A program made the position numbers and the translations under genes. Shown here piece after piece: positions 1 through 12,672 of a DNA stretch of 12,672 nt. The notes below the pieces were generated by a model. It was not told where the DNA came from. It worked only from the letters and a program-made list of their open reading frames with translations, and searched no databases. The DNA is taken from the UHGV virus genome UHGV-1790737. One strand, given 5' to 3'. The stretch comes from a virus. Numbering within the stretch: position 1 is the stretch's first letter; every line of letters starts with the position of its first letter.

Positions 1-42
1 GCTTGTAATGGGGTAAGTGATAACAGATGTCTGGAAATATAG
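1..42 (+). CDS. insD: IS2 transposase OrfB (InsD) C-terminal codons, 5'-partial at window edge
   Basis: Frame 1 reads ...SDNRCLEI then TAG at 40-42, the same C-terminus as the minus-strand transposase at 11780-12672. Confidence 0.7.
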   Translation, partial: ACNGVSDNRCLEI

Positions 43-53
43 GGGCAAATCCA
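1..53 (+). mobile_element. IS2 right-end fragment (element continues left of the window)
   Basis: Positions 27-53 (tgtctggaaatataggggcaaatcca) are the reverse complement of the terminus of the IS2 copy at 11769-11794. Frame 1 over 1-42 translates to [13 protein letters not shown]-stop, matching the C-terminus of the transposase encoded on the other copy. Identification as IS2 is from recalled InsD and terminal sequence. Confidence 0.8.
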
Positions 54-150
54 GTTACGTCGCTGGACATATGCTGGCGGTAAGCAATGGAAAGGTCTCA
101 TGACTCGTCGTGAGATTGAGCGTGAAATCTGTTTGTGGGGTCAGCAATGA
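54..150 (+). pseudogene. Endolysin 3' remnant (SAR/T4-type lysozyme, phage 21 R / RrrD-like), 5' part replaced by IS2
   Basis: Frame 1 from about 52 reads [32 protein letters not shown]-stop, which I recall as the C-terminus of the phage-21-type lysozyme family. All three + frames carry stops within 1-42, so no N-terminal part exists here. The TGA at 148-150 overlaps the Rz ATG at 147 (ATGA), the usual R-Rz junction. Confidence 0.6.
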
Positions 151-611
151 ACAGAGTAACCGCGATTATCTCCGCTCTGGTTATCTGCATCATCGTCTGC
201 CTGTCATGGGCTGTTAATCATTACCGTGATAACGCCATTACCTACAAAGCCCAGCGCGACAAAAATGCCAGAGAACTGAAGCTGGCGAACGCGGCAATTA
301 CTGACATGCAGATGCGTCAGCGTGATGTTGCTGCGCTCGATGCAAAATACACGAAGGAGTTAGCTGATGCGAAAGCTGAAAATGATGCTCTGCGTGATGA
401 TGTTGCCGCTGGTCGTCGTCGGTTGCACATCAAAGCAGTCTGTCAGTCAGTGCGTGAAGCCACCACCGCCTCCGGCGTGGATAATGCAGCCTCCCCCCGA
501 CTGGCAGACACCGCTGAACGGGATTATTTCACCCTCCGGGAACGACTGGTAATGATGCAGGCCCAACTTGAAGGTGCTCAGCAATACATAACCGAGCAGT
601 GTTTAAAGTAA
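147..611 (+). CDS. rzpR: Rz i-spanin (inner-membrane spanin subunit), 154 aa
   Basis: Translation [60 protein letters not shown]... has an N-terminal TM helix and coiled-coil periplasmic domain and is near-identical to my recollection of lambda Rz. ATG at 147 is preferred over the in-frame GTG at 135 because it overlaps the upstream stop. Symbol given by analogy to Rac. Confidence 0.9.
367..552 (+). CDS. rzoR: Rz1 o-spanin (outer-membrane lipoprotein), embedded in the +1 frame of Rz
   Basis: The 61-aa product [24 protein letters not shown]...[18 protein letters not shown] has a lipoprotein signal with lipobox VVGC and a proline-rich mature region. It lies entirely inside Rz in another frame, the classic Rz/Rz1 arrangement. 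Confidence 0.85.
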
Positions 612-748
612 AATCTTAACTACAATATGATTCATTTTGATGATTGTTTCATAAGGAACAGTGAAGTAAGATCTAAGAGGAGTTAAATTTTATACAGTAT
701 AATCATAATATTGCAGCAAGGTGGTTATAATTGAAAGAATATTTAGAT

Positions 749-2206
749 ATGAATACATCTCATGTAAGAGTTGTTACTCATATGTGTGGGTTCCTGGTTT
801 GGCTCTATAGTCTTTCAATGTTGCCACCAATGGTTGTAGCATTGTTTTATAAAGAAAAAAGCCTGTTCGTTTTCTTTATAACTTTCGTTATATTTTTTTG
901 TATTGGTGGCGGAGCGTGGTATACAACTAAGAAATCTGGCATTCAATTACGTACCCGTGATGGGTTTATTATAATTGTAATGTTTTGGATTTTGTTTTCT
1001 GTTATTAGTGCATTCCCTTTATGGATTGACTCAGAACTTAATTTAACGTTCATTGATGCTCTGTTTGAAGGGGTTTCTGGAATAACAACAACAGGAGCAA
1101 CTGTAATTGATGATGTTAGTTCATTACCTCGGGCATATTTGTACTATCGGTCACAGTTAAATTTTATAGGTGGTTTAGGAGTTATTGTTCTGGCGGTTGC
1201 TGTATTGCCATTATTGGGTATTGGTGGTGCAAAGCTTTATCAGTCAGAAATGCCGGGGCCATTTAAGGATGACAAACTCACTCCCCGCCTGGCCGATACG
1301 TCACGGACACTGTGGATAACTTATTCTTTATTAGGTATTGCTTGTATTGTCTGTTATAGACTTGCAGGAATGCCTTTGTTTGATGCTATTTGTCACGGGA
1401 TTTCCACAGTTTCGCTTGGTGGTTTCTCAACTCATAGCGAGAGTATCGGATATTTTAATAACTATTTGGTTGAGCTGGTGGCTGGTTCTTTTTCCCTGCT
1501 ATCGGCTTTCAACTTCACTCTTTGGTATATTGTTATTAGCAGGAAAACGATAAAACCTTTAATCAGAGATATTGAACTTCGTTTCTTTCTGTTAATAGCC
1601 TTAGGGGTGATCATTGTTACCTCTTTCCAGGTCTGGCATATAGGTATGTATGACTTGCATGGAAGTTTTATTCATTCGTTTTTTCTTGCCAGCTCCATGC
1701 TCACTGATAATGGTTTAGCTACGCAGGATTATGCAAGCTGGCCCACGCACACGATAGTGTTTTTGCTGTTGTCAAGTTTCTTTGGGGGATGTATAGGTTC
1801 AACTTGTGGTGGAATTAAGTCACTTCGATTTCTTATACTTTTCAAACAAAGCAAACACGAGATAAATCAGCTTTCTCATCCCAGAGCGTTGTTGAGTGTA
1901 AATGTAGGAGGGAAGATAGTTACAGATCGTGTAATGAGGTCTGTATGGAGTTTCTTTTTTCTTTATACTCTCTTCACGGTGTTTTTTATACTGGTGTTAA
2001 ATGGTATGGGATATGATTTTCTTACATCATTTGCAACAGTGGCTGCATGTATTAATAATATGGGATTAGGTTTTGGGGCTACTGCATCGTCATTCGGAGT
2101 GCTTAATGACATTGCAAAATATTTAATGTGCATAGCTATGATTCTTGGTCGCCTTGAAATTTATCCTGTTATTATATTGTTTTCAGGTTTTTTTTGGCGC
2201 TCCTAA
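749..2206 (+). CDS. trkG: TrkG, Trk-system potassium uptake membrane protein (TrkH/TrkG family), 485 aa
   Basis: Polytopic membrane protein beginning MNTSHVRVVTHMCGFLVWLYSL..., with GxG-type selectivity-filter-like motifs (TTTGAT, LGGFS, GLGFG). It matches my recollection of Rac-prophage TrkG. The gene and flanks are markedly AT-rich against ~50% GC phage neighbours. ATG at 749 is preferred over the TTG at 731 used by the ORF track. Confidence 0.93.
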   Translation: MNTSHVRVVTHMCGFLVWLYSLSMLPPMVVALFYKEKSLFVFFITFVIFFCIGGGAWYTTKKSGIQLRTRDGFIIIVMFWILFSVISAFPLWIDSELNLTFIDALFEGVSGITTTGATVIDDVSSLPRAYLYYRSQLNFIGGLGVIVLAVAVLPLLGIGGAKLYQSEMPGPFKDDKLTPRLADTSRTLWITYSLLGIACIVCYRLAGMPLFDAICHGISTVSLGGFSTHSESIGYFNNYLVELVAGSFSLLSAFNFTLWYIVISRKTIKPLIRDIELRFFLLIALGVIIVTSFQVWHIGMYDLHGSFIHSFFLASSMLTDNGLATQDYASWPTHTIVFLLLSSFFGGCIGSTCGGIKSLRFLILFKQSKHEINQLSHPRALLSVNVGGKIVTDRVMRSVWSFFFLYTLFTVFFILVLNGMGYDFLTSFATVAACINNMGLGFGATASSFGVLNDIAKYLMCIAMILGRLEIYPVIILFSGFFWRS

Positions 2207-2292
2207 TATATGGCTGATTTATAATTGTGAGTTTAATATTATGTTGACTCACTCATTGATCCAATACTTAACTTTACCAGCAACACCTCCGC

Positions 2293-2327
2293 CCCCAGTA
2301 GCACTGGCTGCTGGGGTGCGTTTTATT
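2293..2327 (+). terminator. Putative intrinsic terminator downstream of trkG
   Basis: Ten-bp stem ccccagtagc (2293-2302) pairing with gctgctgggg (2307-2316), including one G-U pair, around loop actg, then tgcg and ttttatt (2321-2327). The U-tract is offset 4 nt from the stem, so strength is uncertain. Confidence 0.4.
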
Positions 2328-2343
2328 CATAAAGCAAGGATGT

Positions 2344-3135
2344 ATGAGCGAGAAATTAAAGATAGTCTATCGCCCATTACAAGAATTGTCACCGTATGCG
2401 CACAACGCCAGGACGCACAGCCCTGAGCAGGTGGCACAACTGGTAGAAAGTATTAAGCAATTCGGCTGGACTAATCCGGTGCTGATTGACGAAAAGGGCG
2501 AAATTATTGCGGGTCACGGTCGTGTTATGGCGGCTGAAATGCTCAAAATGGATTCTGTTCCGGTCATTGTTCTGTCTGGCCTGACGGATGAGCAGAAAAA
2601 GGCGTACCGCCTGGCAGATAATCGCCTGCCGATGAATGCTGGCTGGGATGAAGATCTGTTGCGGATGGAGCTGTCGGACCTAATCAATGCTGATTTTGAT
2701 GTCTCCCTGACAGGCTTCATCCCGACAGAAATTGATGAACTGTTGACGGATGTTTTGCCCGGTACAGGAAATGAGGAGGAGCCGTATACGACGAAAATTG
2801 ATACGCCTGTTTATGAGCCGTCGGGCGGTAAACCGGATATCAGTGAACTGTACGACGATACGAAAACGCAGGAGCTGATCAGCCGGATACGTTCGGCTTC
2901 CCTTGAGCCTGATATTGAGAAATTCCTCCTGTGTGCGGCAGAACGTCACACGGTGTTTAATTTCAGCAGAATTGCGGACTATTACGCTCACGCCCCCGCT
3001 GAAATTCAGTGTTTTTTCGAGGAGTCGGCGCTGGTGATCATTGATTATCAGCAGGCTATTGAAAATGGATTTGTCCGGATGACGCAGCGCATGGTGGAGA
3101 TCATGCATGGTGGTGAGGAGGAGGAATATGCGTGA
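2344..3135 (+). CDS. ParB/Srx N-terminal domain protein (ParB-like nuclease/NTP-binding fold) with uncharacterised acidic C-terminal domain, 263 aa
   Basis: N-terminal ~90 aa has the ParB/sulfiredoxin signature, including GHGR (nt 2512-2523) followed by VMAA, i.e. a GxxRxxA-type motif. C-terminal ~170 aa is acidic with no family I recognise. SD-like agga sits 4 nt upstream of the ATG. By position after trkG this corresponds to Rac ynaK, which I recall as a short truncated gene in K-12. Confidence 0.85.
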   Translation: MSEKLKIVYRPLQELSPYAHNARTHSPEQVAQLVESIKQFGWTNPVLIDEKGEIIAGHGRVMAAEMLKMDSVPVIVLSGLTDEQKKAYRLADNRLPMNAGWDEDLLRMELSDLINADFDVSLTGFIPTEIDELLTDVLPGTGNEEEPYTTKIDTPVYEPSGGKPDISELYDDTKTQELISRIRSASLEPDIEKFLLCAAERHTVFNFSRIADYYAHAPAEIQCFFEESALVIIDYQQAIENGFVRMTQRMVEIMHGGEEEEYA

Positions 3136-4060
3136 TGATTTTTGCGCCTTTATTCTGACTCACGGGCGACCGGACAAAGTTCTGACTTACCGGACGTTGC
3201 GTCGTGCTGGCTATACCGGGAAAATTTTTATCGTTGTTGATGATGAAGATAAGACACGGCATCAGTACATGGCTGAATTTGGTGAACAGGTGCTGGTGTT
3301 TTCCAAAACCGATATCGCCAGTCGTTTTGACGAAGCCGATAATTTCTGTGACCGCCGCTCAATTTTTTACGCCCGTAATGCCTGTTTCGACCTGGCAAAA
3401 CTGGTCGGGTGTAAATACTTCATTCAGCTCGATGATGATTATCACGAGTTCCAGTTTCGGGTGGATCGCAACTATGACCAGGCCTATTTCCCGATAAGGA
3501 AACTGGATGCGATCCTTTCTGAAATGCTGGCGTACTACGAATCAATACCTGCTCTTTCCATCGCTATGTCGCAGGGCGGGGATTTTCTTGGTGACAATGG
3601 CGGCCATGCTTCGTGGGTGAAACGCAAGGCAATGAACAGCTTTATCTGTTCGGTTGATCGACCGTTCTCATTCATGGGGCGCATTAACGAGGATGTGAAT
3701 ACGTACACGAATCTCGGTCGCTGTGGTGAATTGTTTATGACGATCGGTGCTGTCCAGTTAGGGCAGAAACAGACGCAGAAAAACAGCGGCGGAATGACCG
3801 AGCTGTATCTGGATTCCGGAACCTACGTTAAAAGTTTTTACTCCGTCATGTATGCGCCGTCGTGCGTAAAAATTTCACTGATGGGTGCCAGCCATAAACG
3901 CATTCACCATCAGGTCACCTGGAACAACGCTGCAGTAAAAATCCTTCACGAAAAATACAGGAAGAAGACACCCTGCATATCAATGGGGGTGACAAATGAT
4001 TCCGTATTCGAAAGTCGAGTCTCTGGCAGCGTGCCGGATGACTGCACAACAAATCGCTGA
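3128..4060 (+). CDS. Uncharacterised 310-aa protein translationally coupled to the ParB-like gene (ydaY-like position)
   Basis: ATG at 3128 is preceded by a strong SD (ggagg, 3117-3121, 6-nt spacing) and overlaps the upstream TGA (3133-3135) by 8 nt. Protein begins MRDDFCAFILTHGRPD and carries acidic clusters (VVDDED, QLDDDYHEF). I cannot assign a family from sequence alone. The ORF-track start at 3107 is rejected in favour of the SD-supported ATG. Confidence 0.8.
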   Translation: MRDDFCAFILTHGRPDKVLTYRTLRRAGYTGKIFIVVDDEDKTRHQYMAEFGEQVLVFSKTDIASRFDEADNFCDRRSIFYARNACFDLAKLVGCKYFIQLDDDYHEFQFRVDRNYDQAYFPIRKLDAILSEMLAYYESIPALSIAMSQGGDFLGDNGGHASWVKRKAMNSFICSVDRPFSFMGRINEDVNTYTNLGRCGELFMTIGAVQLGQKQTQKNSGGMTELYLDSGTYVKSFYSVMYAPSCVKISLMGASHKRIHHQVTWNNAAVKILHEKYRKKTPCISMGVTNDSVFESRVSGSVPDDCTTNR

Positions 4061-4247
4061 CGTTCTGGATGTTGATCTGAACCGACTGAAAGAAAATCGG
4101 GAAGCAATGACAGATTTTTATGCGGCCATCCGTAAGGGCAGAGCGAAAGGTGAAGCCGAGTTACGAGCGGCATTGTTTAAGCTTGCCAGAAAAGGGGATG
4201 CCTTTGCTCTGCGCGAACTACTCAGGGTGGATAAAAATCAGGACTAA
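3996..4247 (+). CDS. Small helix-turn-helix DNA-binding protein (83 aa) immediately upstream of the small terminase
   Basis: ATG at 3996 follows a G-rich SD (gggggtga, 3985-3992). HTH-like segment SLAACRMTAQQIADVLDVD. Its stop at 4245-4247 is 3 nt before the terS ATG. Overlaps the 3' end of the preceding gene by 65 nt; the alternative ATG at 4038 has no SD. Confidence 0.6.
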   Translation: MIPYSKVESLAACRMTAQQIADVLDVDLNRLKENREAMTDFYAAIRKGRAKGEAELRAALFKLARKGDAFALRELLRVDKNQD

Positions 4248-4250
4248 CTG

Positions 4251-5345
4251 ATGAGCAGACCGGACTGGGGGGCGTTGCAGCAGGAGTATATTGCTGAATA
4301 CACCCGCTCCGGTATATCTCCGGTGGCATGGTGTGAAGCAAGGGGACTGAATTACGCAACAGCCCGTCGTTACATCAAAAAAACTCCGAAAAATGCGCAG
4401 ACAGAAATGCGCAAAACTGCGCAAAAAAGTGCGCAGAAAAAATCTGCGCAGACTGCACAAAAGCGGAACGAAAAATCTCAGGAAAAAAAGCCAGTATTCG
4501 ATGCGGGCCTGAATGAGGGCGACGCGGAGGAATTTTCGTTCTGTCCCGATGAATTCGGCATTTCTGACCAGCAGGCTAAGTTTGCGATGCTTGTTGCTCA
4601 GGGTAAAAAGCCGACAGAGGCGTACCGACTAGCCGGTTATGAGGGGCAAGGTGCGACAGCTAACAGCAACGCCAGTCGTATGCTTAGAAATGCCAGGGTT
4701 TATCGTGCTATCAGCTACTTCCGCAATCAGTACCAGAAACGCTATACCGCAGACCTGGATTTACTGGTGAGCCAGTTGATGGTCATTGTCCAGGCCGACC
4801 CCAATCAGTTGGCACAATTTCGCCGTGTTAACTGCCGTTATTGCTGGGGCGAGAATCATCTCTACCAGTGGCGTGATATTGCAGAATTCGATAAGGCTGC
4901 GGCACAGGCCTCCAGAGATGGTAAACCCGAGCCGGAATATGGAGGCCTCGGCTTTGTTGATAACGCCATACCCAATCCGGATTGCCCGAAGTGCTGCGGT
5001 GAGGGAACGGGACAGCTTTATATGGCTGATACCACACTGCTTGATGGGGATGCGCGGCAATTATATGCAGGGTCAAAGCTCGGAAAATACGGTGTTGAGA
5101 TCCTGCTGGAGGATAAGGCTGCCGCCCGGCGTGAATTGTTGCGTTTGCTTTCTGCTGGCGGGGCATTATGTGCAGATAAGCGGCTACAGGAACTGGAAAT
5201 TGAACGGCGCAGAATAGAAAACCAGAAGCTGCACAAAGAGATCGAAACGGTGGAAGATAATGAACATCCCCAGCCTGTGGCGATCAATATTAATGTGGTT
5301 GATGCCAGAGTAAGGAGTGATGAAGATGATCTCTCCGACGCTTAA
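4251..5345 (+). CDS. Terminase small subunit (Terminase_2-like core) with N-terminal HTH, Lys/Gln-rich linker, Cys-cluster region and C-terminal coiled coil, 364 aa
   Basis: Central segment QQAKFAMLVAQGKKPTEAYRLAGYEG...ATANSNASRMLRNARVYRAISYF resembles the small-terminase (Terminase_2) signature as I recall it. It sits directly upstream of, and overlaps, the large terminase. Extra features: CRYC...CPKCC cysteine cluster and coiled-coil tail. Confidence 0.8.
   Translation: MSRPDWGALQQEYIAEYTRSGISPVAWCEARGLNYATARRYIKKTPKNAQTEMRKTAQKSAQKKSAQTAQKRNEKSQEKKPVFDAGLNEGDAEEFSFCPDEFGISDQQAKFAMLVAQGKKPTEAYRLAGYEGQGATANSNASRMLRNARVYRAISYFRNQYQKRYTADLDLLVSQLMVIVQADPNQLAQFRRVNCRYCWGENHLYQWRDIAEFDKAAAQASRDGKPEPEYGGLGFVDNAIPNPDCPKCCGEGTGQLYMADTTLLDGDARQLYAGSKLGKYGVEILLEDKAAARRELLRLLSAGGALCADKRLQELEIERRRIENQKLHKEIETVEDNEHPQPVAININVVDARVRSDEDDLSDA
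4394..4458. repeat. Array of five palindromic TGCGCA hexamers (plus a TGCACA variant) inside the 5' part of terS
   Basis: TGCGCA at 4394, 4408, 4418, 4430 and 4445, and TGCACA at 4453, embedded in A-rich spacers. The array encodes the AQK/AQT-rich linker of TerS. Confidence 0.6.
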
Positions 5346-6627
5346 TGTGCCTCAGGCGCGATTTCTTTCAATGCCCCATAAATTTAAAGCCTATATTGCT
5401 GGTTTTGGCTCGGGCAAAACATGGGTTGGGTGTGGCGGCATATGCAAGGGGATTTGGGAGCATCCAGGTATAAATCAGGGATATTTTGCGCCAACGTATC
5501 CCCAAATTCGCGATATTTTTTACCCTACAGTGGAAGAAGTTGCTGCTGACTGGGGATTGAACGTAAAAATTAATGAGGGAAATAAAGAGGTTCACTTTTA
5601 TTACGGACGCCAGTATCGGGGAACCACTGTCTGCAGATCGATGGAGAAGCCACAAACGATCGTCGGTTTCAAAATTGGTAATGCGTTGGTGGATGAACTG
5701 GACATTTTGCCGAAGGAAAAAGCCAGAACGGCGTGGCGCAAGATAATTGCACGTATGCGTTATAAGATTGATGGACTTCGCAACGGTATTGACGTTACAA
5801 CCACGCCGGAAGGATTCAAATTTGTCTACGAGCAGTTTGTTAAAGCCGTGCGTGAAAAAACAGAGCTGGCCTCACTGTATGGTCTGGTGCAGGCATCTAC
5901 TTTCGATAATGAAAAGAACCTGCCAGCAGATTACATTCCTTCGCTTCTTGAATCATACCCTCCAGAGCTGATTAAAGCCTATCTTCGAGGACAGTTTACT
6001 AACCTGACAAGTGGTACTGTTTACCATCAGTTTGACCGGAAACTGAATAATTGCGAAGAAGTGGAGCAGCCAGGGGAGCCGATTTATATTGGGATGGATT
6101 TTAACGTTGGAAAGATGGCGGGAATCGTCCATGTGCTGCGTTTGGGGCTTCCATGTGCGGTAACTGAAATCATCAATGCCTACGATACGCCGGATATGAT
6201 CCGCCTCATTAAAGAACGCTTCTGGCTGTATGATGGGAATGATTACCGGAAAGTGAGGGAAATTTATATTTATCCAGATGCTTCCGGGGACTCCAGAAAA
6301 TCAAGTAACGCAAGTACGACGGATATAGCCCAGCTTAAGCAGGCTGGTTTTAACGTTGTGGTGAACAGCTCGAACCCGCCAGTAAAAGATCGCGTTAACT
6401 CAATGAATGCAATGTTCTGCAATGCCAATGGTGAGCGTCGCTATAAAGTTAATGTGAAGCGTTGCCCGTTATATGCCGAATCTCTGGAGCAACAGGTCTG
6501 GGATGAGAAGGGGGAGCCTGATAAAAAATCTGGCAATGATCACCCGAATGATGCCGGAGGTTATTTCATCGTTAAGCAATTCCCTATTGTCAAACCGACC
6601 GGAAGAGTCACATCACTTCGGATTTAA
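5326..6627 (+). CDS. Terminase large subunit (ATPase/nuclease), about 433 aa
   Basis: Walker A-like motif AGFGSGKT near the N-terminus, acidic motifs in the C-terminal half consistent with a nuclease domain, and position after terS. SD aggag (5313-5317) favours ATG 5326 over the in-frame GTG 5317 and ATG 5320. Overlaps the terS stop. Confidence 0.88.
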   Translation: MISPTLNVPQARFLSMPHKFKAYIAGFGSGKTWVGCGGICKGIWEHPGINQGYFAPTYPQIRDIFYPTVEEVAADWGLNVKINEGNKEVHFYYGRQYRGTTVCRSMEKPQTIVGFKIGNALVDELDILPKEKARTAWRKIIARMRYKIDGLRNGIDVTTTPEGFKFVYEQFVKAVREKTELASLYGLVQASTFDNEKNLPADYIPSLLESYPPELIKAYLRGQFTNLTSGTVYHQFDRKLNNCEEVEQPGEPIYIGMDFNVGKMAGIVHVLRLGLPCAVTEIINAYDTPDMIRLIKERFWLYDGNDYRKVREIYIYPDASGDSRKSSNASTTDIAQLKQAGFNVVVNSSNPPVKDRVNSMNAMFCNANGERRYKVNVKRCPLYAESLEQQVWDEKGEPDKKSGNDHPNDAGGYFIVKQFPIVKPTGRVTSLRI

Positions 6628-6629
6628 TT

Positions 6630-8036
6630 ATGGCTGATATATCAACACCCAACCTCGACTATAACGATATGCTGGAGGCGTGGGATATTAACGACGCACT
6701 GATGGGCGGTACGCTTGAAATGCGCAGGCAGGGGGAAAATTATCTCCCAAAATGGCCTAACGAAGATGAAGACGCTTATAAAAAACGCCTGTCTGTGGCT
6801 ACGCTACTTCCTGTGTATGAAGAAAGCATCAAGCAAAATATTGGGCGCATATTTGCAGAGCCGACAGTATTGAGTGAGGAAACGCCGGCAAAAATCAGGG
6901 AATATGCAGAAAATATCGACATGGAGGGGAGCCGACTGGATGTGTGGGCGCAGCAATTTTTCAGCCTCGCATTTCAGTATGGTGTGGCACATGCGCTGGT
7001 GGACTATCCACGAACGGATATGAAAGAGATTCGGACAAAAGCCGATGAAAACGCGACCGGTGGTCGTCCGTACGTTACGATGCTGAATCCACGCCAGGTT
7101 ATTGGATGGAAATCGAAAGTTGAAAAAGGGAAAGTTGTTCTCACTGATTTGCGTATAAAAGAGGTCATCATTATTGATGGTGATGATTTCGGGCAGAAGA
7201 AGGTGGAGCAGATCCGCCATATTATGCCCCGTCGAGTTGAAATTTATCGACGTAGCGAAGGCACTAATGGCGAATCTGTCTGGACGCTTCATGAGTCATG
7301 GAATACCAGCCGTGATGATATTCCTCTGGTAACACTGTACACGAAGAAAACAGGATTTATGCGTGGTACACCGCCATTGCTTAATCTTGGCTTGCTGAAT
7401 ATCAAGCACTGGCAAAGCCAGAGCGAGCAGGACAATATTCTTCATGTTGCCCGCGTTCCATTGCTGGTGGCCTACGGGCTGGACAGGAATGAAGAACTGA
7501 CGGTTGGTGCATCCACCGCTACGATTTTTGAGGACAGAACAAAAAATGGCCTCGAATATGTTGAACATAGTGGCGCAGCGATAGAATCTGGCGAAACATC
7601 ACTTGAGAAGCTGGAAAATCAGATGCGTCATGCCGGCGCTAAACTTCTGCGTGCTGAAAATACATCCACCAAATCTGTTGATCAGACTAATGAAGAGCGA
7701 ATGCAGGAAAACTCGCCGCTTTATACAATGGCGAACTCCCTCGAAGATGCCCTCGATAATATTCTCCAGATAATGGCGGAATGGATCGGAGAGAGTTGCG
7801 GTGGCAATGTGGATGTGCGCACTGAACTGGATGTATCTGCCCAGGTGTTTGACTCATCCTCCGCGCTGGCTGTTCAGTCATTGCGTCAGGGCGGTGATAT
7901 ACGTCAGATTGATGCGGTTCGGGTGTTGCAGGCGTTGAAATTTATCGATCAGGATTCCCGTCCAGAGGAAGTGATCGATGAATTAAAAAATCAGAGTGTA
8001 ATGCTGATGGAAATCAATGATGCAAACCGTGAATGA
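6630..8036 (+). CDS. Portal protein (DUF4055-type), 468 aa
   Basis: Begins 3 nt after the terL stop. Size and position (terL, then this, then MuF-like) are canonical for a portal. Sequence resembles the DUF4055 portal class as I recall it; not verified by search. Confidence 0.7.
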   Translation: MADISTPNLDYNDMLEAWDINDALMGGTLEMRRQGENYLPKWPNEDEDAYKKRLSVATLLPVYEESIKQNIGRIFAEPTVLSEETPAKIREYAENIDMEGSRLDVWAQQFFSLAFQYGVAHALVDYPRTDMKEIRTKADENATGGRPYVTMLNPRQVIGWKSKVEKGKVVLTDLRIKEVIIIDGDDFGQKKVEQIRHIMPRRVEIYRRSEGTNGESVWTLHESWNTSRDDIPLVTLYTKKTGFMRGTPPLLNLGLLNIKHWQSQSEQDNILHVARVPLLVAYGLDRNEELTVGASTATIFEDRTKNGLEYVEHSGAAIESGETSLEKLENQMRHAGAKLLRAENTSTKSVDQTNEERMQENSPLYTMANSLEDALDNILQIMAEWIGESCGGNVDVRTELDVSAQVFDSSSALAVQSLRQGGDIRQIDAVRVLQALKFIDQDSRPEEVIDELKNQSVMLMEINDANRE

Positions 8037-9132
8037 ACGGCTGCGTGATGAATCAATTGCTCATGCAGTCTGGATATCCCGCTATAGCACTGGCGTGGCT
8101 GCCAGAATGGTGAAAATACTGAATGACAGCGATGCGGAACTTACTGCTCGCCTGCTGATAGCACTGGACAGCCTCGATCCAGGTAGTTTTACCGTTAAGC
8201 GCCTGGAGTCACTTCTGGCGAGCGTCAGAGAGGTTAACCGCACTGCTATTAACAGCATGTTTACCAGTCTCTCCGGAGAGCTGAACGAGCTGGCAATTTA
8301 TGAGGCTGGTTATCAGTTAAGTCTGTTTGATTCTATGCTACCTGATTTTGTTGCTGATGTTCACCCTCTGGTTGGTATCTCTCCTGATGCACTTTATGCC
8401 GCTGCAATGGCGCGACCATTCCAGGGACGACTGCTCAGTGAGTGGGCCTCAGATCTTGAGGCGGATCGGCTCAGACGCATAACAAATACAGTGCGTCAGG
8501 GTTTTTTGCTGGGGGATACCAATGAGCAGATCGCAAGAAAAATTCGGGGACATGTCAGTAAGGGATTTCAGGATGGTGCATTGCAGATGAGCCGGGCTAA
8601 TGCGGCCAGCATTGCAAAAACAGCGGTTGGACATCTTGCTGCTACTGCCCGTGAGAGTTTTGCCAGCGCGAATAATGATTTGATTAAGGGTAAGCAATGG
8701 TTATCAACGCTTGATAATCGTACTACGCCACAATGTCGAATCAGGGATCGCCTCAAATATACGCTGAATAATAAACCTGTAGGTCACAGCGTGCCTTATT
8801 TGCAGGGGCCGGGAAAAATTCATTTCTGCTGCCGCTCAACGGAAACGTTCATTCTGAAATCAGCGAAGGAACTGGGTATTGATGTTCGCGATATTTCCCC
8901 GGCTGAGCGGGCCAGCATGGATGGCGTGATGGCCGGAGATACAACCTACAGGGAATGGTTTTTGCGTCAGCCTTACACCAGACAAAAACAGATTGTGGGG
9001 GAAACCCGAGCAAAGCTGATTCGGGATGGTGGTATGTCGCCAGATGAATTTTACACCGATAAAGGCGAATGGCTGACGCTGAAGCAGCTCCGTGAGCGTG
9101 ATGCACAGGTATTCAGAAAAGCAGGGATTTAA
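8017..9132 (+). CDS. Head morphogenesis protein (Mu F / SPP1 gp7-like minor capsid protein), 371 aa
   Basis: Overlaps the portal stop by 20 nt. Position between portal and scaffold, and length, are typical of MuF-like head morphogenesis proteins. Family assignment is from gene order plus general sequence character. Confidence 0.7.
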   Translation: MMQTVNERLRDESIAHAVWISRYSTGVAARMVKILNDSDAELTARLLIALDSLDPGSFTVKRLESLLASVREVNRTAINSMFTSLSGELNELAIYEAGYQLSLFDSMLPDFVADVHPLVGISPDALYAAAMARPFQGRLLSEWASDLEADRLRRITNTVRQGFLLGDTNEQIARKIRGHVSKGFQDGALQMSRANAASIAKTAVGHLAATARESFASANNDLIKGKQWLSTLDNRTTPQCRIRDRLKYTLNNKPVGHSVPYLQGPGKIHFCCRSTETFILKSAKELGIDVRDISPAERASMDGVMAGDTTYREWFLRQPYTRQKQIVGETRAKLIRDGGMSPDEFYTDKGEWLTLKQLRERDAQVFRKAGI

Positions 9133-9152
9133 ATAAATCATTTATTACAACA

Positions 9153-9178
9153 GGCTACCTTCGGGTGGCCTTTTTTAT
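9153..9178 (+). terminator. Intrinsic terminator between the head morphogenesis and scaffold genes
   Basis: Stem ggctacc (9153-9159), loop ttcg, stem ggtggcc (9164-9170, one G-U pair), then tttttt (9171-9176) and att. Confidence 0.7.
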
Positions 9179-9236
9179 TGCTGCGATCCGGATGGTGAGC
9201 AGCGTAACTGTCGGAAGACTTAAACCAGGTACTAAT

Positions 9237-10001
9237 ATGAAACTGAAAACGGTCGAGATTAACGGAAAACAATACGCAGAAATTGATACTGCTGGCCTGC
9301 CAGTTTATGTGCACGACGATGGTAAAGAAATTGGCTTCGATGCACCGCTGGCGACAAAAAAAATTACAGAGCTTAATGGCGAGGCAAAAAATCATCGCCT
9401 GGCTAAAGAAGCTGCAGAGGAAAAACTGGCTAAGTTTGCCGCTATCGAAGACCCGAAGAAGGCGATCGAGGCACTGGAAATGCTGTCAAAAATCGACCAG
9501 AAAAAGCTGCTCGATGCGGGACAGGTTGACCAGGTTAAGGCAGAAATTACGAAAAATTTTCAGCAGCAATTAGATGAAGAAAAGCAACGCTCTCAGATGC
9601 TGGAGAAGCAGCTTTACGATTCTATGATTGGCGGTAGTTTTGCGGGTTCAAAATATATTGCCGATAAAATTGCGATCCCGGCAGATTTATTACAAGCCCG
9701 CTTCGGGCAGGCATTCAAAGTGGAAGAAGGGAGGATCGTTGCTTATGACGCTTCCGGCAACAAAATTTATTCCCGCGCGAAGCCTGGCGAACTGGCGCAG
9801 TTTGATGAGGCGCTGGAGTTCCTTGTCGAAAATTACCCTCAGAAAGACTACATCCTGAAAGCCAGTGGCAACAATGGCGGCGGCTCCCGTCCGACACAGC
9901 ATGATATTGGTCAGAAAACGATGAAACGCTCTGCTTTTGATGCACTGGATGTTGCAGGTAAGCAAAACGCATTGAAAGACGGTATCACAATCGTTGATTA
10001 A
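9237..10001 (+). CDS. Putative scaffolding protein, 254 aa
   Basis: Lies between the MuF-like and major capsid genes. Charged, coiled-coil-rich middle (EKLAKFAAIEDPKKAIEALEMLSKIDQKKLLDAG...QQQLDEEKQRSQMLEKQLYD). ATG 9237 is chosen because the ORF-track start at 9165 lies inside the terminator hairpin; the SD is weak, so the start is uncertain. Confidence 0.55.
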   Translation: MKLKTVEINGKQYAEIDTAGLPVYVHDDGKEIGFDAPLATKKITELNGEAKNHRLAKEAAEEKLAKFAAIEDPKKAIEALEMLSKIDQKKLLDAGQVDQVKAEITKNFQQQLDEEKQRSQMLEKQLYDSMIGGSFAGSKYIADKIAIPADLLQARFGQAFKVEEGRIVAYDASGNKIYSRAKPGELAQFDEALEFLVENYPQKDYILKASGNNGGGSRPTQHDIGQKTMKRSAFDALDVAGKQNALKDGITIVD

Positions 10002-10099
10002 CACATTTGTCAGCTTCCGGATGGGAGCTGGTGTCAGGGCTGGATAGCTCATTACTCCATCTATTCACAATTACGCAAATTTTTAAGGAATATTTAATT

Positions 10100-11239
10100 A
10101 TGGCTGGAAATACCCTGACCGGGTTGATCCCGACTATTTATACCGCCCTGGATGTTGTATCCCGTGAGCAGGTAGGTTTTATCCCTGCGGTAGCAAAAAA
10201 CGCAAAAGCTGACGCCGCAGCAAAAGATCAGACGGTAACCGCGCCAGTTGCGCCTGAGGCGAAAACCGAAGATATCGTACCGGGGCCGTCAGCTCCGAAT
10301 ACCGGTGATCAAAATATTGGCACTGTTGATGTAAAAATTACTAAATCCAAAATGGCACCGGTTAAATGGAATGGTGAAGAACAACTGGCTCTTGGCCCTT
10401 CAGGGACTTACAACACCATTCTGGCTGATCAGTTCAAGCAGGCTTTTCGCGCCCTTGCAAACGAGGTTGAGGCTGATCTTGGTGCGTTGTATTTCGGTGC
10501 TTCCCGCGCCGTGGGAACCGCAGGGACAACGCCGTTTGGTGTTAAAGATGATCTTTCTGATGCTGCTCTGGCTCGTCAGGTTCTGGAGGATAACGGCGCA
10601 CCGACAACCGATCTGCAGATGGTGCTTGGCTCCACTGCCATTGCTAATTTGCGCGGAAAACAGTCTGTATTGTTTAAAGTGAATGAATCCGGCACTGAAC
10701 AGCTACTGCGTGAGGGCGTGTTGGGGCGTCTGGAGGGATTCAATATTCACAGTTCGGCAGGTGTGAAACGAGCGCCAAAGGTTGCTGCAACTGGTTATCT
10801 CGTGAATGGAGAGAAAAAAGAAGGCGATGTTCTTATTTCCATTGATACTGGTTCGGGGAGTATTTCTGCAGGTCAGATTGTTACGTTCGCTGGTGATCCG
10901 AATCAGTATGTTGTGGCAGCAGCGACCAGCAATCTGATTACTCTTGCAGCGCCCGGACTGCGTCAGGATCTGGCCGATGATACTGCCATCACAGTTGTTG
11001 GGGCCTTTACTGCAAATATGGCGTTTGATCGCAACGCGTTTCTGCTGGCATCCCGTACTCCGGCAATGCCGGAAGGTGGCGATAATGCTGATGATGTAAT
11101 GAATGTTACGGACCCGATTTCAGGGATTACGTTCCAGATTGCACTGTATCGTCAGTATCGCCAGGTGCGCTATGAAGTTGGACTGGCATGGGGTGTTTCA
11201 TCAGTGAAGCCGGCACATGGTTGTCTGATTCTTGGTTAA
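10100..11239 (+). CDS. Major capsid (coat) protein, 379 aa
   Basis: Follows the scaffold gene and is followed by a strong terminator. ATG 10100 is preceded by SD-like aagga (10085-10089). Size and Gly/Ala/Thr-rich composition fit a coat protein. The ORF-track extension to 10007 is rejected. Confidence 0.8.
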   Translation: MAGNTLTGLIPTIYTALDVVSREQVGFIPAVAKNAKADAAAKDQTVTAPVAPEAKTEDIVPGPSAPNTGDQNIGTVDVKITKSKMAPVKWNGEEQLALGPSGTYNTILADQFKQAFRALANEVEADLGALYFGASRAVGTAGTTPFGVKDDLSDAALARQVLEDNGAPTTDLQMVLGSTAIANLRGKQSVLFKVNESGTEQLLREGVLGRLEGFNIHSSAGVKRAPKVAATGYLVNGEKKEGDVLISIDTGSGSISAGQIVTFAGDPNQYVVAAATSNLITLAAPGLRQDLADDTAITVVGAFTANMAFDRNAFLLASRTPAMPEGGDNADDVMNVTDPISGITFQIALYRQYRQVRYEVGLAWGVSSVKPAHGCLILG

Positions 11240-11249
11240 ACATTCAAAC

Positions 11250-11269
11250 GGGGCTTCGGCCCCATTTTT
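11250..11269 (+). terminator. Intrinsic terminator after the major capsid gene
   Basis: Stem ggggc (11250-11254), loop ttcg, stem gcccc (11259-11263), then a and ttttt (11265-11269). Confidence 0.7.
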
Positions 11270-11281
11270 AATGGGGGGCAT

Positions 11282-11458
11282 ATGGCCGGATTAACTAAAG
11301 AGCAAAGAGCACAGCGTGAAGCCGCACAAAAAACGCAAATTGAGTTAGTGGTTATGGTGACCGATTATCAGATGTTTCCCGGCGCACCAACTATCGCTAA
11401 TGTTCATCCTGATGAAGTTGACAACTGGAAGGCTATGGGCTGGAAAACTCAGGAGTAA
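11282..11458 (+). CDS. Small hypothetical protein (58 aa), absent from the ORF track
   Basis: ATG at 11282 is preceded by a G-run SD (11273-11278). Translation MAGLTKEQRAQREAAQKTQIELVVMVTDYQMFPGAPTIANVHPDEVDNWKAMGWKTQE. Its TAA (11456-11458) is 3 nt before the next ATG (11462), suggesting coupling. Confidence 0.5.
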   Translation: MAGLTKEQRAQREAAQKTQIELVVMVTDYQMFPGAPTIANVHPDEVDNWKAMGWKTQE

Positions 11459-11461
11459 CAC

Positions 11462-11809
11462 ATGATCACTTACGTGACCTGTGATGACGTTGATAATGCG
11501 TTTGGGAACGCCTGGACGAGTGAGAACGCTAAAAATAAAGCTGTTTTAATGGCTAATGCCTGGCTTAATGGCTTCAACCTGAAAATTAACCCATCCCGTA
11601 TTCCGGAAGAGGTAAAACTTGCGGGAGCATATGCAGCCAGAATTGCCTCATTCGGTAAGTTGTTTCAGCAGAAAAATGATTCTGGCGTTGTTATCAGTAA
11701 AGCCGTGTCGGCTGACGGGGTCAGTGTATCGAAATCATTTTCTGAGTTGCCAGCAAACAGCACTGCATTGGATTTGCCCCTATATTTCCAGACACCTGTT
11801 ATCACTTAA
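11462..11809 (+). pseudogene. Phage structural gene (head-completion/connector candidate by position) truncated by IS2; the last ~13 codons are read from IS2 sequence
   Basis: ORF MITYVTCDDVDNAFGNAWTSENAKNKAVLMANAWLNGF... runs in frame across the IS2 boundary at 11768/11769, so the native reading frame is interrupted after ~102 codons. The functional call is positional only. Confidence 0.55.
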
Positions 11810-12672
11810 CCCATTACTGGCTTGCTGCCGTAGATATTCCCGTGGCGAGCGATAACCCAGTGCACTATGCGGATGCCATTCGTTATAATGCTCGAACGCC
11901 TCTGCAAGGTTCTTTGCTGCCGTTAACCCGTCTGGTTTGGGCATGACACTGATGTAGTCACGCTTTATCGTTTTCACGAAGCTCTCTGCTATGCCGTTAC
12001 TCTCCGGACTCCGCACCGCCGTGCTCTTCGGTTCAAGCCCCAACATCCGGGCAAACTGCCGTGTTTCATTAGCCCGGTAGCATGAACCATTATCCGTCAG
12101 CCACTCTACTGGAGACGCCGGAAGCTCGTTGCCGAAGCGGCGTTCCACCGCTCCCAGCATGACGTCCTGTACTGTTTCACTGTTGAAGCCGCCCGTAGTG
12201 ACCGCCCAGTGCAGTGCCTCACGGTCACAGCAGTCCAGCGCGAACGTGACTCGCAGTTTTTCTCCGTTATCACAGCGGAACTCGAACCCGTCAGAGCACC
12301 ATCGCTGATTACTTTCTTTCACAGCCACTCTGCCTGTATGTGCCCGTTTCGATGGCGGTACAGCAGGTTTTCGCTCAAGCAACAGCGCATTCTGGCGCAT
12401 GATCCGGTAAACACGTTTGGCATTGATCGCAGGCATACCATCAAGTTCTGCCTGTCTGCGAAGCAGCGCCCATACCCGACGATAACCATACGTGGGCAGC
12501 TCTCCGATAACATGGTGTATACGGAGAAGCACATCCGTATCATCAGTGTGACGACTGCGGCGGCCATCCATCCAGTCATCGGTTCGTCTGAGAATGACGT
12601 GCAACTGCGCACGCGACACCCGGAGACAACGGCTGACTAAGCTTACTCCCCATCCCCGGGCAATAAGGGCGC
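11769..12672 (-). mobile_element. IS2 (partial; continues beyond the right window edge), inverted relative to the left copy
   Basis: Terminus tggatttgcccctatatttccagaca at 11769 onward, and the encoded InsD transposase. The terminal 53 nt are about 92% identical (4 mismatches) to the reverse complement of 1-53. Confidence 0.9.
11780..12672 (-). CDS. insD: IS2 transposase OrfB (InsD), 5'-partial (N-terminus beyond window)
   Basis: Minus-strand translation ...[70 protein letters not shown]...[36 protein letters not shown] matches IS2 InsD as I recall it (DDE integrase-type). The frame remains open to the window edge at 12672. Confidence 0.9.

Follow-up and report, generated by a model that had tools for sequence, protein, structure and literature searches.

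Which part of a lambdoid prophage is missing from the Rac element of Escherichia coli K-12, and how was it lost? The initial annotation read the DNA studied here (UHGV virus genome UHGV-1790737; the whole stretch of 12,672 nt is called the window) as a Rac-type prophage that keeps a packaging and head module gone from K-12. Judged by its sequence, the window is very probably a piece of the late operon of a full-size, Rac-type lambdoid E. coli prophage. Positions 147–11769 code for Rz/Rz1, TrkG, a ParB-like protein, a glycosyltransferase, TerS, TerL, portal, MuF, a scaffold-like protein, the major capsid protein and head-tail adaptors, all on the forward strand, as is every feature given below except the second insertion sequence.

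The window opens with the right end (IRR) of an IS2 copy (1–53, ending in ...GGGGCAAATCCA) that lies in the lysozyme gene rrrD, whose 3' remnant (54–150) is colinear with rrrD of the F163 prophage (NZ_OY754349.1; 18602–19099 of the extracted F163 locus). The full-length i-spanin Rz (147–611, 154 aa; PF03245, E = 3.7e-53) contains in its +1 frame the o-spanin lipoprotein Rz1 (367–552), which is K-12 RzoR (100% by tblastn), and is followed by the low-GC moron trkG, a K+ transporter gene (749–2206; GC 0.35–0.41; PF02386, E = 3.8e-144) whose product is 99.8% identical to K-12 TrkG by tblastn. Next come full-length ynaK, encoding a 263-aa protein with a ParB/Srx N-terminal domain (2344–3135; PF02195; phrog_620, E = 1e-90), and the gene for a 310-aa GT-A glycosyltransferase of the TAGT family (3128–4060; PF20691, E = 3.3e-35; phrog_842, E = 7e-104), the start of which overlaps the ynaK stop by 8 nt. 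A small conserved ORF in the gap before TerS (4038–4247; longest ORF, 3996–4247) is annotated in relatives and matches part of a TerS family (phrog_309, E = 8e-23).

The packaging and head genes comprise the terminase small subunit TerS (4251–5345, 364 aa; PF03592, E = 3.5e-8; phrog_51, E = 8e-76), the large subunit TerL with Terminase_6 N and C domains (5326–6627; PF03237, E = 1e-32; PF17289, E = 5e-10), a DUF4055-type portal protein (6630–8036; PF13264, E = 5.6e-45) syntenic with the HK639 portal gene, a MuF-like minor head or head morphogenesis protein (8020–9132; PF04233, E = 1e-8; phrog_241, E = 3e-182) and a DUF6651 protein that is probably the scaffolding protein (9237–10001; PF20356, E = 1e-60; phrog_206 'head scaffolding', E = 3e-22). 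These are followed by a P22-coat-like major capsid protein (10100–11239; PF11651, E = 1.4e-12; phrog_283, E = 2e-136), a small conserved head-region ORF of 58 aa (11282–11458; phrog_1514, E = 3.5e-43) and the gene for head-tail adaptor Ad1 (11462–11769; phrog_493, E = 2e-39), which is cut at about codon 103 of 131 by a second, partial IS2 on the reverse strand (11770–12672). In this copy, TGGATTTGCCCCTATATTTCC... is the reverse complement of the IRR; it contains the transposase gene orfB (11780–12619, reverse strand; rve and HTH_21 domains) and runs off the window. The Pfam and PHROG matches bear out the terminase, portal, MuF, scaffold and capsid calls of the initial annotation; it ends the module at 10001, where the scaffold-like gene stops, but the capsid gene follows and the module reaches 11769. 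From TerS to the coat protein all genes are open reading frames in the expected order, with no gaps relative to F163, and from their family assignments we infer headful packaging and scaffold-assisted capsid assembly.

Within the K-12 Rac region (NC_000913.3 1411899–1434958), only window positions 167–2597 find a match (2431 bp, 99.3%, NC_000913 1423200–1425630; blastn), that is, Rz from about codon 8, Rz1, trkG and the first 85 or so codons of ynaK. From position 2598 onward, neither blastn at word size 7 nor tblastn with 14 window proteins returned any K-12 Rac match, DNA or protein, and the same searches of the whole Rac region yielded no remote head-gene remnants. K-12 Rac thus lacks the remainder of ynaK, the TAGT gene, TerS, TerL, portal, MuF, the scaffold-like gene, capsid and adaptors, together with the start of Rz and the lysis genes upstream of it; K-12 rzpR is without the first ~21 nt of Rz, with the left junction at window 167/168 at a TA microhomology. 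Relative to F163, K-12 shows three clean gaps, at 11204–19115, 21547–33106 and 34865–43215 of the extracted F163 locus, and the junction sequences of the first two each have a 2-bp microhomology. The deletion that removes the head module spans 11,560 bp, and K-12 Rac is colinear with the F163 prophage on both sides of it. Its left breakpoint lies at 2596–2599, between …GAGCAGAA and AAAGGCG…; a three-way comparison of the junction shows AA as the 2-bp microhomology. To the right of the deletion, K-12 (17630–19389 of the Rac extract) aligns to F163 33107–34864 at 98.4%, a flank that 11,560 bp separate from the ynaK breakpoint in the full-size F163 copy; the identities of the two K-12 flanks to F163 are 99.6% and 98.4%. 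This colinearity around the deletion supports the core of the initial reading. K-12 Rac is very probably a deletion derivative of a full-size Rac-type prophage, in which one illegitimate recombination at a 2-bp microhomology fused ynaK at codon ~85 with the interior of a tail assembly chaperone gene, creating the K-12 'ynaK' and 'ydaY' ORFs and taking out all packaging, head and neck genes together with the tail tube gene. A 7.9 kb upstream deletion, an 8.35-kb deletion among the tail genes and the insertion of an IS5 complete the K-12 state.

Full-size copies allow the window to be placed. Over window positions 52–11770 (1–11770 in 2EC1), the prophages of F163 and 2EC1 (NZ_CP047571.1) align without gaps at 99.4–99.6% identity and with identical gene order, F163 at 99.6%. 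The F163 prophage is integrated in ttcA; one flank holds ttcA and intR-xisR-ralR-recT-recE-racC and the opposite flank the tail genes as far as tfaR, and 2EC1 has the same layout at ttcA. Both prophages also have kilR and sieB among their early genes. The window's own Rac lineage is probably integrated in ttcA as well, with intR, recET and racC, a placement that rests on these near-identical relatives, since the window itself has no attachment site, integrase or recET. The genes shared with K-12 (Rz/Rz1, trkG and the 5' end of ynaK) are near-identical DNA, and the K-12 sequence to the right of the deletion is contiguous with the module in the full-size copies. Among 5,426 complete E. coli genomes, the K-12 breakpoint junction is undeleted in 1,099, at least 80% of the window is present in 696 and the K-12 junction is found in 348; in a spread sample of K-12-junction genomes, all 14 had a K-12-like name and/or a genome size of 4.58–4.69 Mb. 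The result mainly serves to correct a K-12-centred view: the textbook 23-kb 'Rac' arose by deletion in one lineage, whereas prophages of full size, with this head module, are the common state in E. coli. Full-size Rac-like prophages are already in the literature (PMC5917428, PMC4632033, PMC6379469), so the initial interpretation is right but already known.

Two other accounts of the K-12 comparison bear on the identity of the lost genes. The initial annotation gave the order rzpR-rzoR-trkG-ynaK-ydaY, which agrees with the K-12 annotation, and took the gene after the ParB-like gene to be ydaY, with K-12 colinear through 2344–4060 and diverging only afterwards. The order from Rz to the ParB-like gene is indeed that of K-12, but the next gene is not ydaY: K-12 homology ends at 2597, and 3107/3128–4060 encodes a TAGT-family enzyme that is absent from K-12, with no tblastn match in K-12 Rac. 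The proposed K-12 homology over 2344–4060 therefore holds for 2344–2597 and fails for 2598–4060, which has no K-12 counterpart; this part of the reading falls, and the main idea is not overturned. The ydaY of full-size copies comes next after the tail tube gene, ~10 kb further on than the ParB-like and TAGT genes, and matches a tail assembly chaperone family (phrog_313, E = 5e-47). By sequence comparison, K-12 ydaY is the tail assembly chaperone gene that lay across the deletion, now without its 5' part, and its start codon comes from ynaK sequence. With blastn and tblastn against K-12 Rac both refuting it, colinearity through ydaY has a negligible chance of being right. Nor does K-12 run straight from ydaY to tail-fibre remnants, as had been supposed, as a tape-measure fragment (ynaA), where the separate 8.35-kb deletion lies, precedes lom and the tail-fibre genes. 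K-12 'ynaK' and 'ydaY' are thus deletion artefacts, a truncated ParB-like gene (the first 254 nt, 2344–2597, ~codons 1–85) and a truncated tail-chaperone gene whose start codon is borrowed. RefSeq calls the intact 263-aa ynaK a pseudogene 'missing C-terminus' in the three strains inspected, plausibly with the truncated 87-aa K-12 YnaK as its reference. The other account takes the window's head module for a later mosaic replacement and gives the K-12 ancestor another one, in which case loss of this one would not follow. Lambdoid prophages do swap modules, and many loci with close ParB-like, TAGT and TerS genes have a TerL without detectable similarity to that of the window. Rac-SA53 (KU052037.1), described as full-sized and Rac-like (PMC5917428), differs in its head module, carries toxin genes in place of trkG, and shares with window positions 2344–11770 only ~730 bp within TerS (8%), at 90% identity. 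Since 'Rac-like' prophages are mosaic in this way, what the actual K-12 ancestor carried between its flanks is inferred from those flanks. Rac-SA53 is reportedly the LT-II-encoding full-size Rac-like prophage of Jobling. Both K-12 breakpoints, however, are intragenic; the parts that K-12 lacks of ynaK and of the tail assembly chaperone gene are contiguous with the head module in F163, 2EC1 and 210205630; and the near-identity of the K-12 flanks to F163 and the 696 genomes holding most of the window speak further against replacement, which we consider very unlikely. Deletion from a full-size prophage carrying this module is the preferred reading.

The copy in the window is itself defective through IS2 in rrrD and Ad1. 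Its description as less decayed has to be qualified, given these insertions in the lysozyme and head-tail adaptor genes. Both genes are intact in F163 (Ad1, 396 nt), and 2EC1 shares with the window only the rrrD insertion, at the same site, annotated there as IS2. The two IS2 copies are mutually inverted, the second with its IRR end toward the phage genes; most relatives align from window base 52 only, and colinearity with F163 stops at 11770. No genome carrying both insertions was seen among the relatives inspected or the best matches listed. Matches among the latter that seem to span 52–12672 do so through an IS copy in rrrD in the opposite orientation. The window covers nothing beyond the two IS2 copies, and the segment between them could be inverted or moved. 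A composite-transposon-like IS2 unit of 11.7 kb, or an IS2-mediated inversion, moved off the Rac locus would fit two copies that face the segment with their IRR ends and a pair of insertions found together in none of those relatives or matches. In 2EC1, however, the prophage with the left IS2 at that rrrD site is in place at ttcA, and there is no sign of translocation within the window; it is simpler to assume that a decaying prophage was hit twice, independently, by an IS, and mobilization by IS2 is unlikely.

Of the whole locus, only the ParB-like/TAGT pair and the sites of recurrent deletion within it might lead to new biology. The ParB-like protein scores 28.9 bits against PF02195 (cut-off, 26.3), in keeping with a ParB/Srx N-terminal domain; its residues 7–93 match Spo0J/ParB structures (E = 2e-5), and the closest relatives of its N-domain include ParB-DNA-methyltransferase fusions, which it matches at their N-terminus (phrog_498, E = 1e-50). 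A partition protein would be expected to have a ParA ATPase as partner and a setting in plasmid or chromosome segregation; no ParA is annotated in F163, 2EC1 or vB_EcoS-666R9. The TAGT protein scores 122.3 bits against PF20691 (cut-off, 27.5) over profile positions 4–205 of 205, and its DDD motif (D102–D104), of the DXD type characteristic of the family, is invariant in 12 homologues; a GT-A fold is reported for this family (PMC13216743), and a search for solved structures matching the protein by sequence found none. Full-length Pfam and PHROG matches and a common DXD motif link it to the T2/T6 beta-glucosyl-HMC-alpha-glucosyltransferase and other TAGT (PF20691) enzymes. Because no 5-hmC pathway, TET, alpha-GT or beta-GT is seen in the window or among the annotated genes of the full-size prophages, the sequence places it among the 'solitary TAGT' phages, a class with unassigned substrate (PMC13216743). 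In the papers searched, nothing relevant to a ParB+TAGT pairing or to ynaK was found. The pair occurs just upstream of the terminase genes in phages of differing head types. Two narrow, apparent deletion hot spots fall within it, at ~2832–2844 and ~3817–3832, and could mark site-specific DNA breaks, for example cuts by terminase or a ParB-type nuclease, from which E. coli would repeatedly shed morphogenesis genes rightwards with trkG retained. Single-strand DNA structure at the two hot spots does not stand out (z = 0.14 and −1.3, neither significant). At one of them, a GTAAACC string suggested an invertase site of the Gin/Pin type; this was rejected, as the right-hand partners have only 0–5 nt in common with the left end. 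Speculatively, the pair (2344–4060) may be a packaging-linked DNA-glycosylation cassette of temperate phages that works without 5-hmC or TET, the ParB/Srx domain bringing the glycosyltransferase to DNA, in line with its presumed role in ParB-methyltransferase fusions, and the hot spots being site-specific breaks; we think this improbable.

Finally, we compared the head module with those of known phages. None of the phage records matched is an isolated virion with this exact module. Ten 'phage' records at 99.4–99.5% are prophage predictions from clinical isolates, and that of 'Salmonella phage SPF_0923' holds the host genes sitABCD, uspF and ompN. From TerS through the Ad1 adaptor, gene order and similarity point with high probability to a DNA-packaging and head-assembly module of the HK639 type. 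The viable lambdoid phage HK639 (NC_016158.1) has its head genes in the order of the window (TerS, TerL, portal, head morphogenesis protein, a gene at the DUF6651 position, major head protein, small ORF and Ad1), and its major head protein is 75% identical to the window capsid protein. It differs in its early region and integrase, and its annotation shows neither trkG nor the ParB-like/TAGT pair ahead of the terminase genes.

The window is an ordinary segment of a widespread and previously described full-size Rac-type prophage. The 47-kb prophage of Escherichia coli F163 (L002) matches window positions 52-11770 at 99.6% identity without gaps, and is itself full-size Rac, flanked on one side by ttcA and intR-xisR-rcbA-ralR-recT-recE-racC-kilR-sieB and on the other by tail genes through tfaR; strain 2EC1 has the same layout. 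The K-12 Rac region (L001) matches only 167-2597 (99.3%; blastn down to word size 7), and tblastn of 14 window proteins against that whole region matched Rz, Rz1, TrkG and YnaK residues 1-89, with no match anywhere in it for the other proteins. The initial annotation, which proposed a Rac-like prophage retaining a packaging and head module absent from K-12, is right in outline, given the F163 match and the absence from K-12 of sequence from 2598 onward. Its equation with K-12 Rac holds over 167-2597, and whole-region alignment gave no match for 2598-4060.

All long open reading frames (ORFs) between 135 and 11809 lie on the + strand and were assigned by Pfam and PHROG searches. They encode Rz (147-611; PF03245, E 4e-53) with embedded Rz1 (367-552; 100% identical to K-12 rzoR), TrkG (749-2206; PF02386, E 4e-144), a 263-aa ParB/Srx N-domain protein, YnaK (2344-3135; PF02195), and a 310-aa TAGT-family glycosyltransferase (3128-4060; PF20691, E 3e-35; phrog_842, E 7e-104). 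These are followed by a small ORF (4038-4247; phrog_309, partial), TerS (4251-5345; PF03592, phrog_51), TerL (5326-6627; Terminase_6 N and C domains), a DUF4055 portal (6630-8036; PF13264), a MuF-like head morphogenesis protein (8020-9132; PF04233, phrog_241), a DUF6651 protein with an additional match to a scaffolding PHROG (9237-10001), a P22-coat-like major capsid protein (10100-11239; PF11651, phrog_283), a 58-aa ORF (11282-11458; phrog_1514) and the head-tail adaptor gene Ad1 (11462 onward; phrog_493). GC content falls to 0.35-0.41 at trkG versus ~0.47-0.53 in the rest of the window. The interval from Rz to the ParB-like gene behaves like a moron site: it holds low-GC trkG in the window (612-2343) and a KilA-N gene with LT-II-type enterotoxin A/B genes in a related prophage (L005 1495-3332).

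Alignment of K-12 with F163 shows three clean gaps: 7.9 kb between the 3' end of ydaW and the start of Rz (L002 11204-19115); 11,560 bp comprising the rest of ynaK, the TAGT gene, the complete set of packaging, head and neck genes, the tail tube gene and the 5' part of the gene for the tail assembly chaperone (L002 21547-33106); and 8.35 kb from tape measure to lom (L002 34865-43215). K-12 lomR also bears an IS5 insertion. The two junctions whose sequences were read have 2-bp microhomologies, TA for the 7.9-kb and AA for the 11,560-bp deletion. The window carries 9.2 kb (2598-11769) of this 11.56-kb stretch. The gene following the ParB-like gene, named ydaY in the initial annotation, is instead the TAGT gene at 3128-4060, which has no K-12 counterpart. 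The ydaY homologue follows the tail tube gene and precedes the tape measure gene in F163, 2EC1, 210205630 and vB_EcoS-666R9; its full ORF reaches 153 aa and belongs to a tail assembly chaperone family (phrog_313, E 5e-47). K-12 ydaY (L001 17622-17981) is this chaperone gene (L002 32997-33458 in F163) lacking its 5' part, and its ATG derives from ynaK sequence immediately left of the deletion junction. RefSeq flags ynaK as a pseudogene 'missing C-terminus' in three inspected strains, F163 (L002 21293-22084), 2EC1 (L003 21456-21713) and 210205630 (L010 6755-7012), although the 263-aa ORF is intact; use of the truncated 87-aa K-12 YnaK as reference is a plausible cause.

Of 5,426 complete E. coli genomes, 696 carry 80% or more of the window, 1,099 are undeleted across the K-12 breakpoint and 348 have the K-12 junction. 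All 14 of a spread sample of the last group, including MG1655, DH5alpha, J53 and ER1709, resemble K-12 in name and/or in genome size (4.58-4.69 Mb). The B strains BL21 and C41 break 23 bp earlier than K-12, and thus represent a separate deletion event. Full-size Rac-like prophages have been explicitly described (PMC5917428, which cites Jobling 2016 and Casjens 2003; also PMC4632033 and PMC6379469), so the finding is not new.

The ParB-like and TAGT genes (2344-4060) overlap by 8 nt, and the glycosyltransferase belongs to a highly conserved family in which a DDD motif is invariant. A YnaK homologue lies directly upstream of the TAGT gene in 85/85 related loci examined (L005-L009, L011-L090), most of which are close relatives and hence not independent evidence. 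The more informative cases are L007, L008 and L009, where TAGT is only 60-65% identical and the head modules are unrelated: Terminase_4, a PF03354 TerL and an HK97-type capsid in the first two, and a lambda GpA-type terminase in L009. The two genes travel together directly before the terminase genes, even in phages whose terminase, portal and capsid are of unrelated types. ParB-DNA-methyltransferase fusions (phrog_498, E 1e-50) have an N-terminus that the YnaK N-domain matches. The annotations of the F163, 2EC1 and vB_EcoS-666R9 prophages include no TET, alpha-GT or beta-GT, and no hmC/TET pathway is visible there, and 'solitary' TAGTs are of reportedly unknown function (PMC13216743). The pair may reasonably be assigned a putative DNA-modification role.

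Many protein-cluster representatives are chimeric, joining N-terminal YnaK or TAGT to a different downstream gene. Breakpoints concentrate at YnaK residues 163-167 (window ~2832-2844; at least 13 of 23 visible junctions) and TAGT residues 230-235 (~3817-3832; at least 14 of 21), counting distinct junctions among the matches listed, irrespective of kinship and for breakpoints late in each protein only. Right-hand partners include TerS, MuF, the tail tube gene, gpK, gpJ, lom, stfR, tfaR and the host sitA side, and certain right-hand sites also recur. Contigs contain real deletions, for example trkG-ynaK'-'lom-stf-tfa-pin. Four DNA junctions, ending at …CCGGATA|, have left ends ...GGTAAACCGGATA or the variant GGTAAGCCGGATA, with microhomology of 0-5 nt. 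Among complete genomes, however, at most 34/993 break within 2779-2898. Neither hot spot coincides with the K-12 breakpoint, and no DNA secondary structure accounting for them was found at either site; speculatively, the pattern could arise if DNA broke at a specific site and the ends were then joined through short homology. One chimeric 402-aa E. coli ORF (P0203) has ~237 N-terminal residues of TerL followed by YnaK residues ~100-263; this reverses genome order and implies duplication or rearrangement rather than simple deletion.

Every gene from Rz through the 58-aa ORF is open and colinear with F163. This prophage copy is nonetheless defective, because IS2 interrupts rrrD and Ad1: one copy, whose right end makes up positions 1-53, sits in the lysozyme gene rrrD, and a second, oppositely oriented IS2 (11770-12672) truncates Ad1. 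The two inverted copies flank the phage segment with IRR ends pointing inward. rrrD is a recurrent IS2/IS3-family target, hit at the same site in 2EC1 (L003 17814-19042) and in opposite orientation in 210205630 (L010 3012-4240).

No isolated virion with exactly this sequence was found; phage records at 99.4-99.5% identity are predicted prophages, one of which includes host genes. This record, ON032529.1 (L098, 'Salmonella phage SPF_0923'), begins within Rz, spans the entire late region and continues into host sitABCD, uspF and ompN; it represents either a prophage prediction with misplaced ends or DNA that was packaged in situ, rightwards from the prophage. Judging by family membership only, the window module would package DNA by the headful mechanism and assemble its capsid with a scaffold. 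In the viable lambdoid phage HK639 the head genes follow the same order and the capsid protein is 75% identical, which supports a head module of a functioning type.
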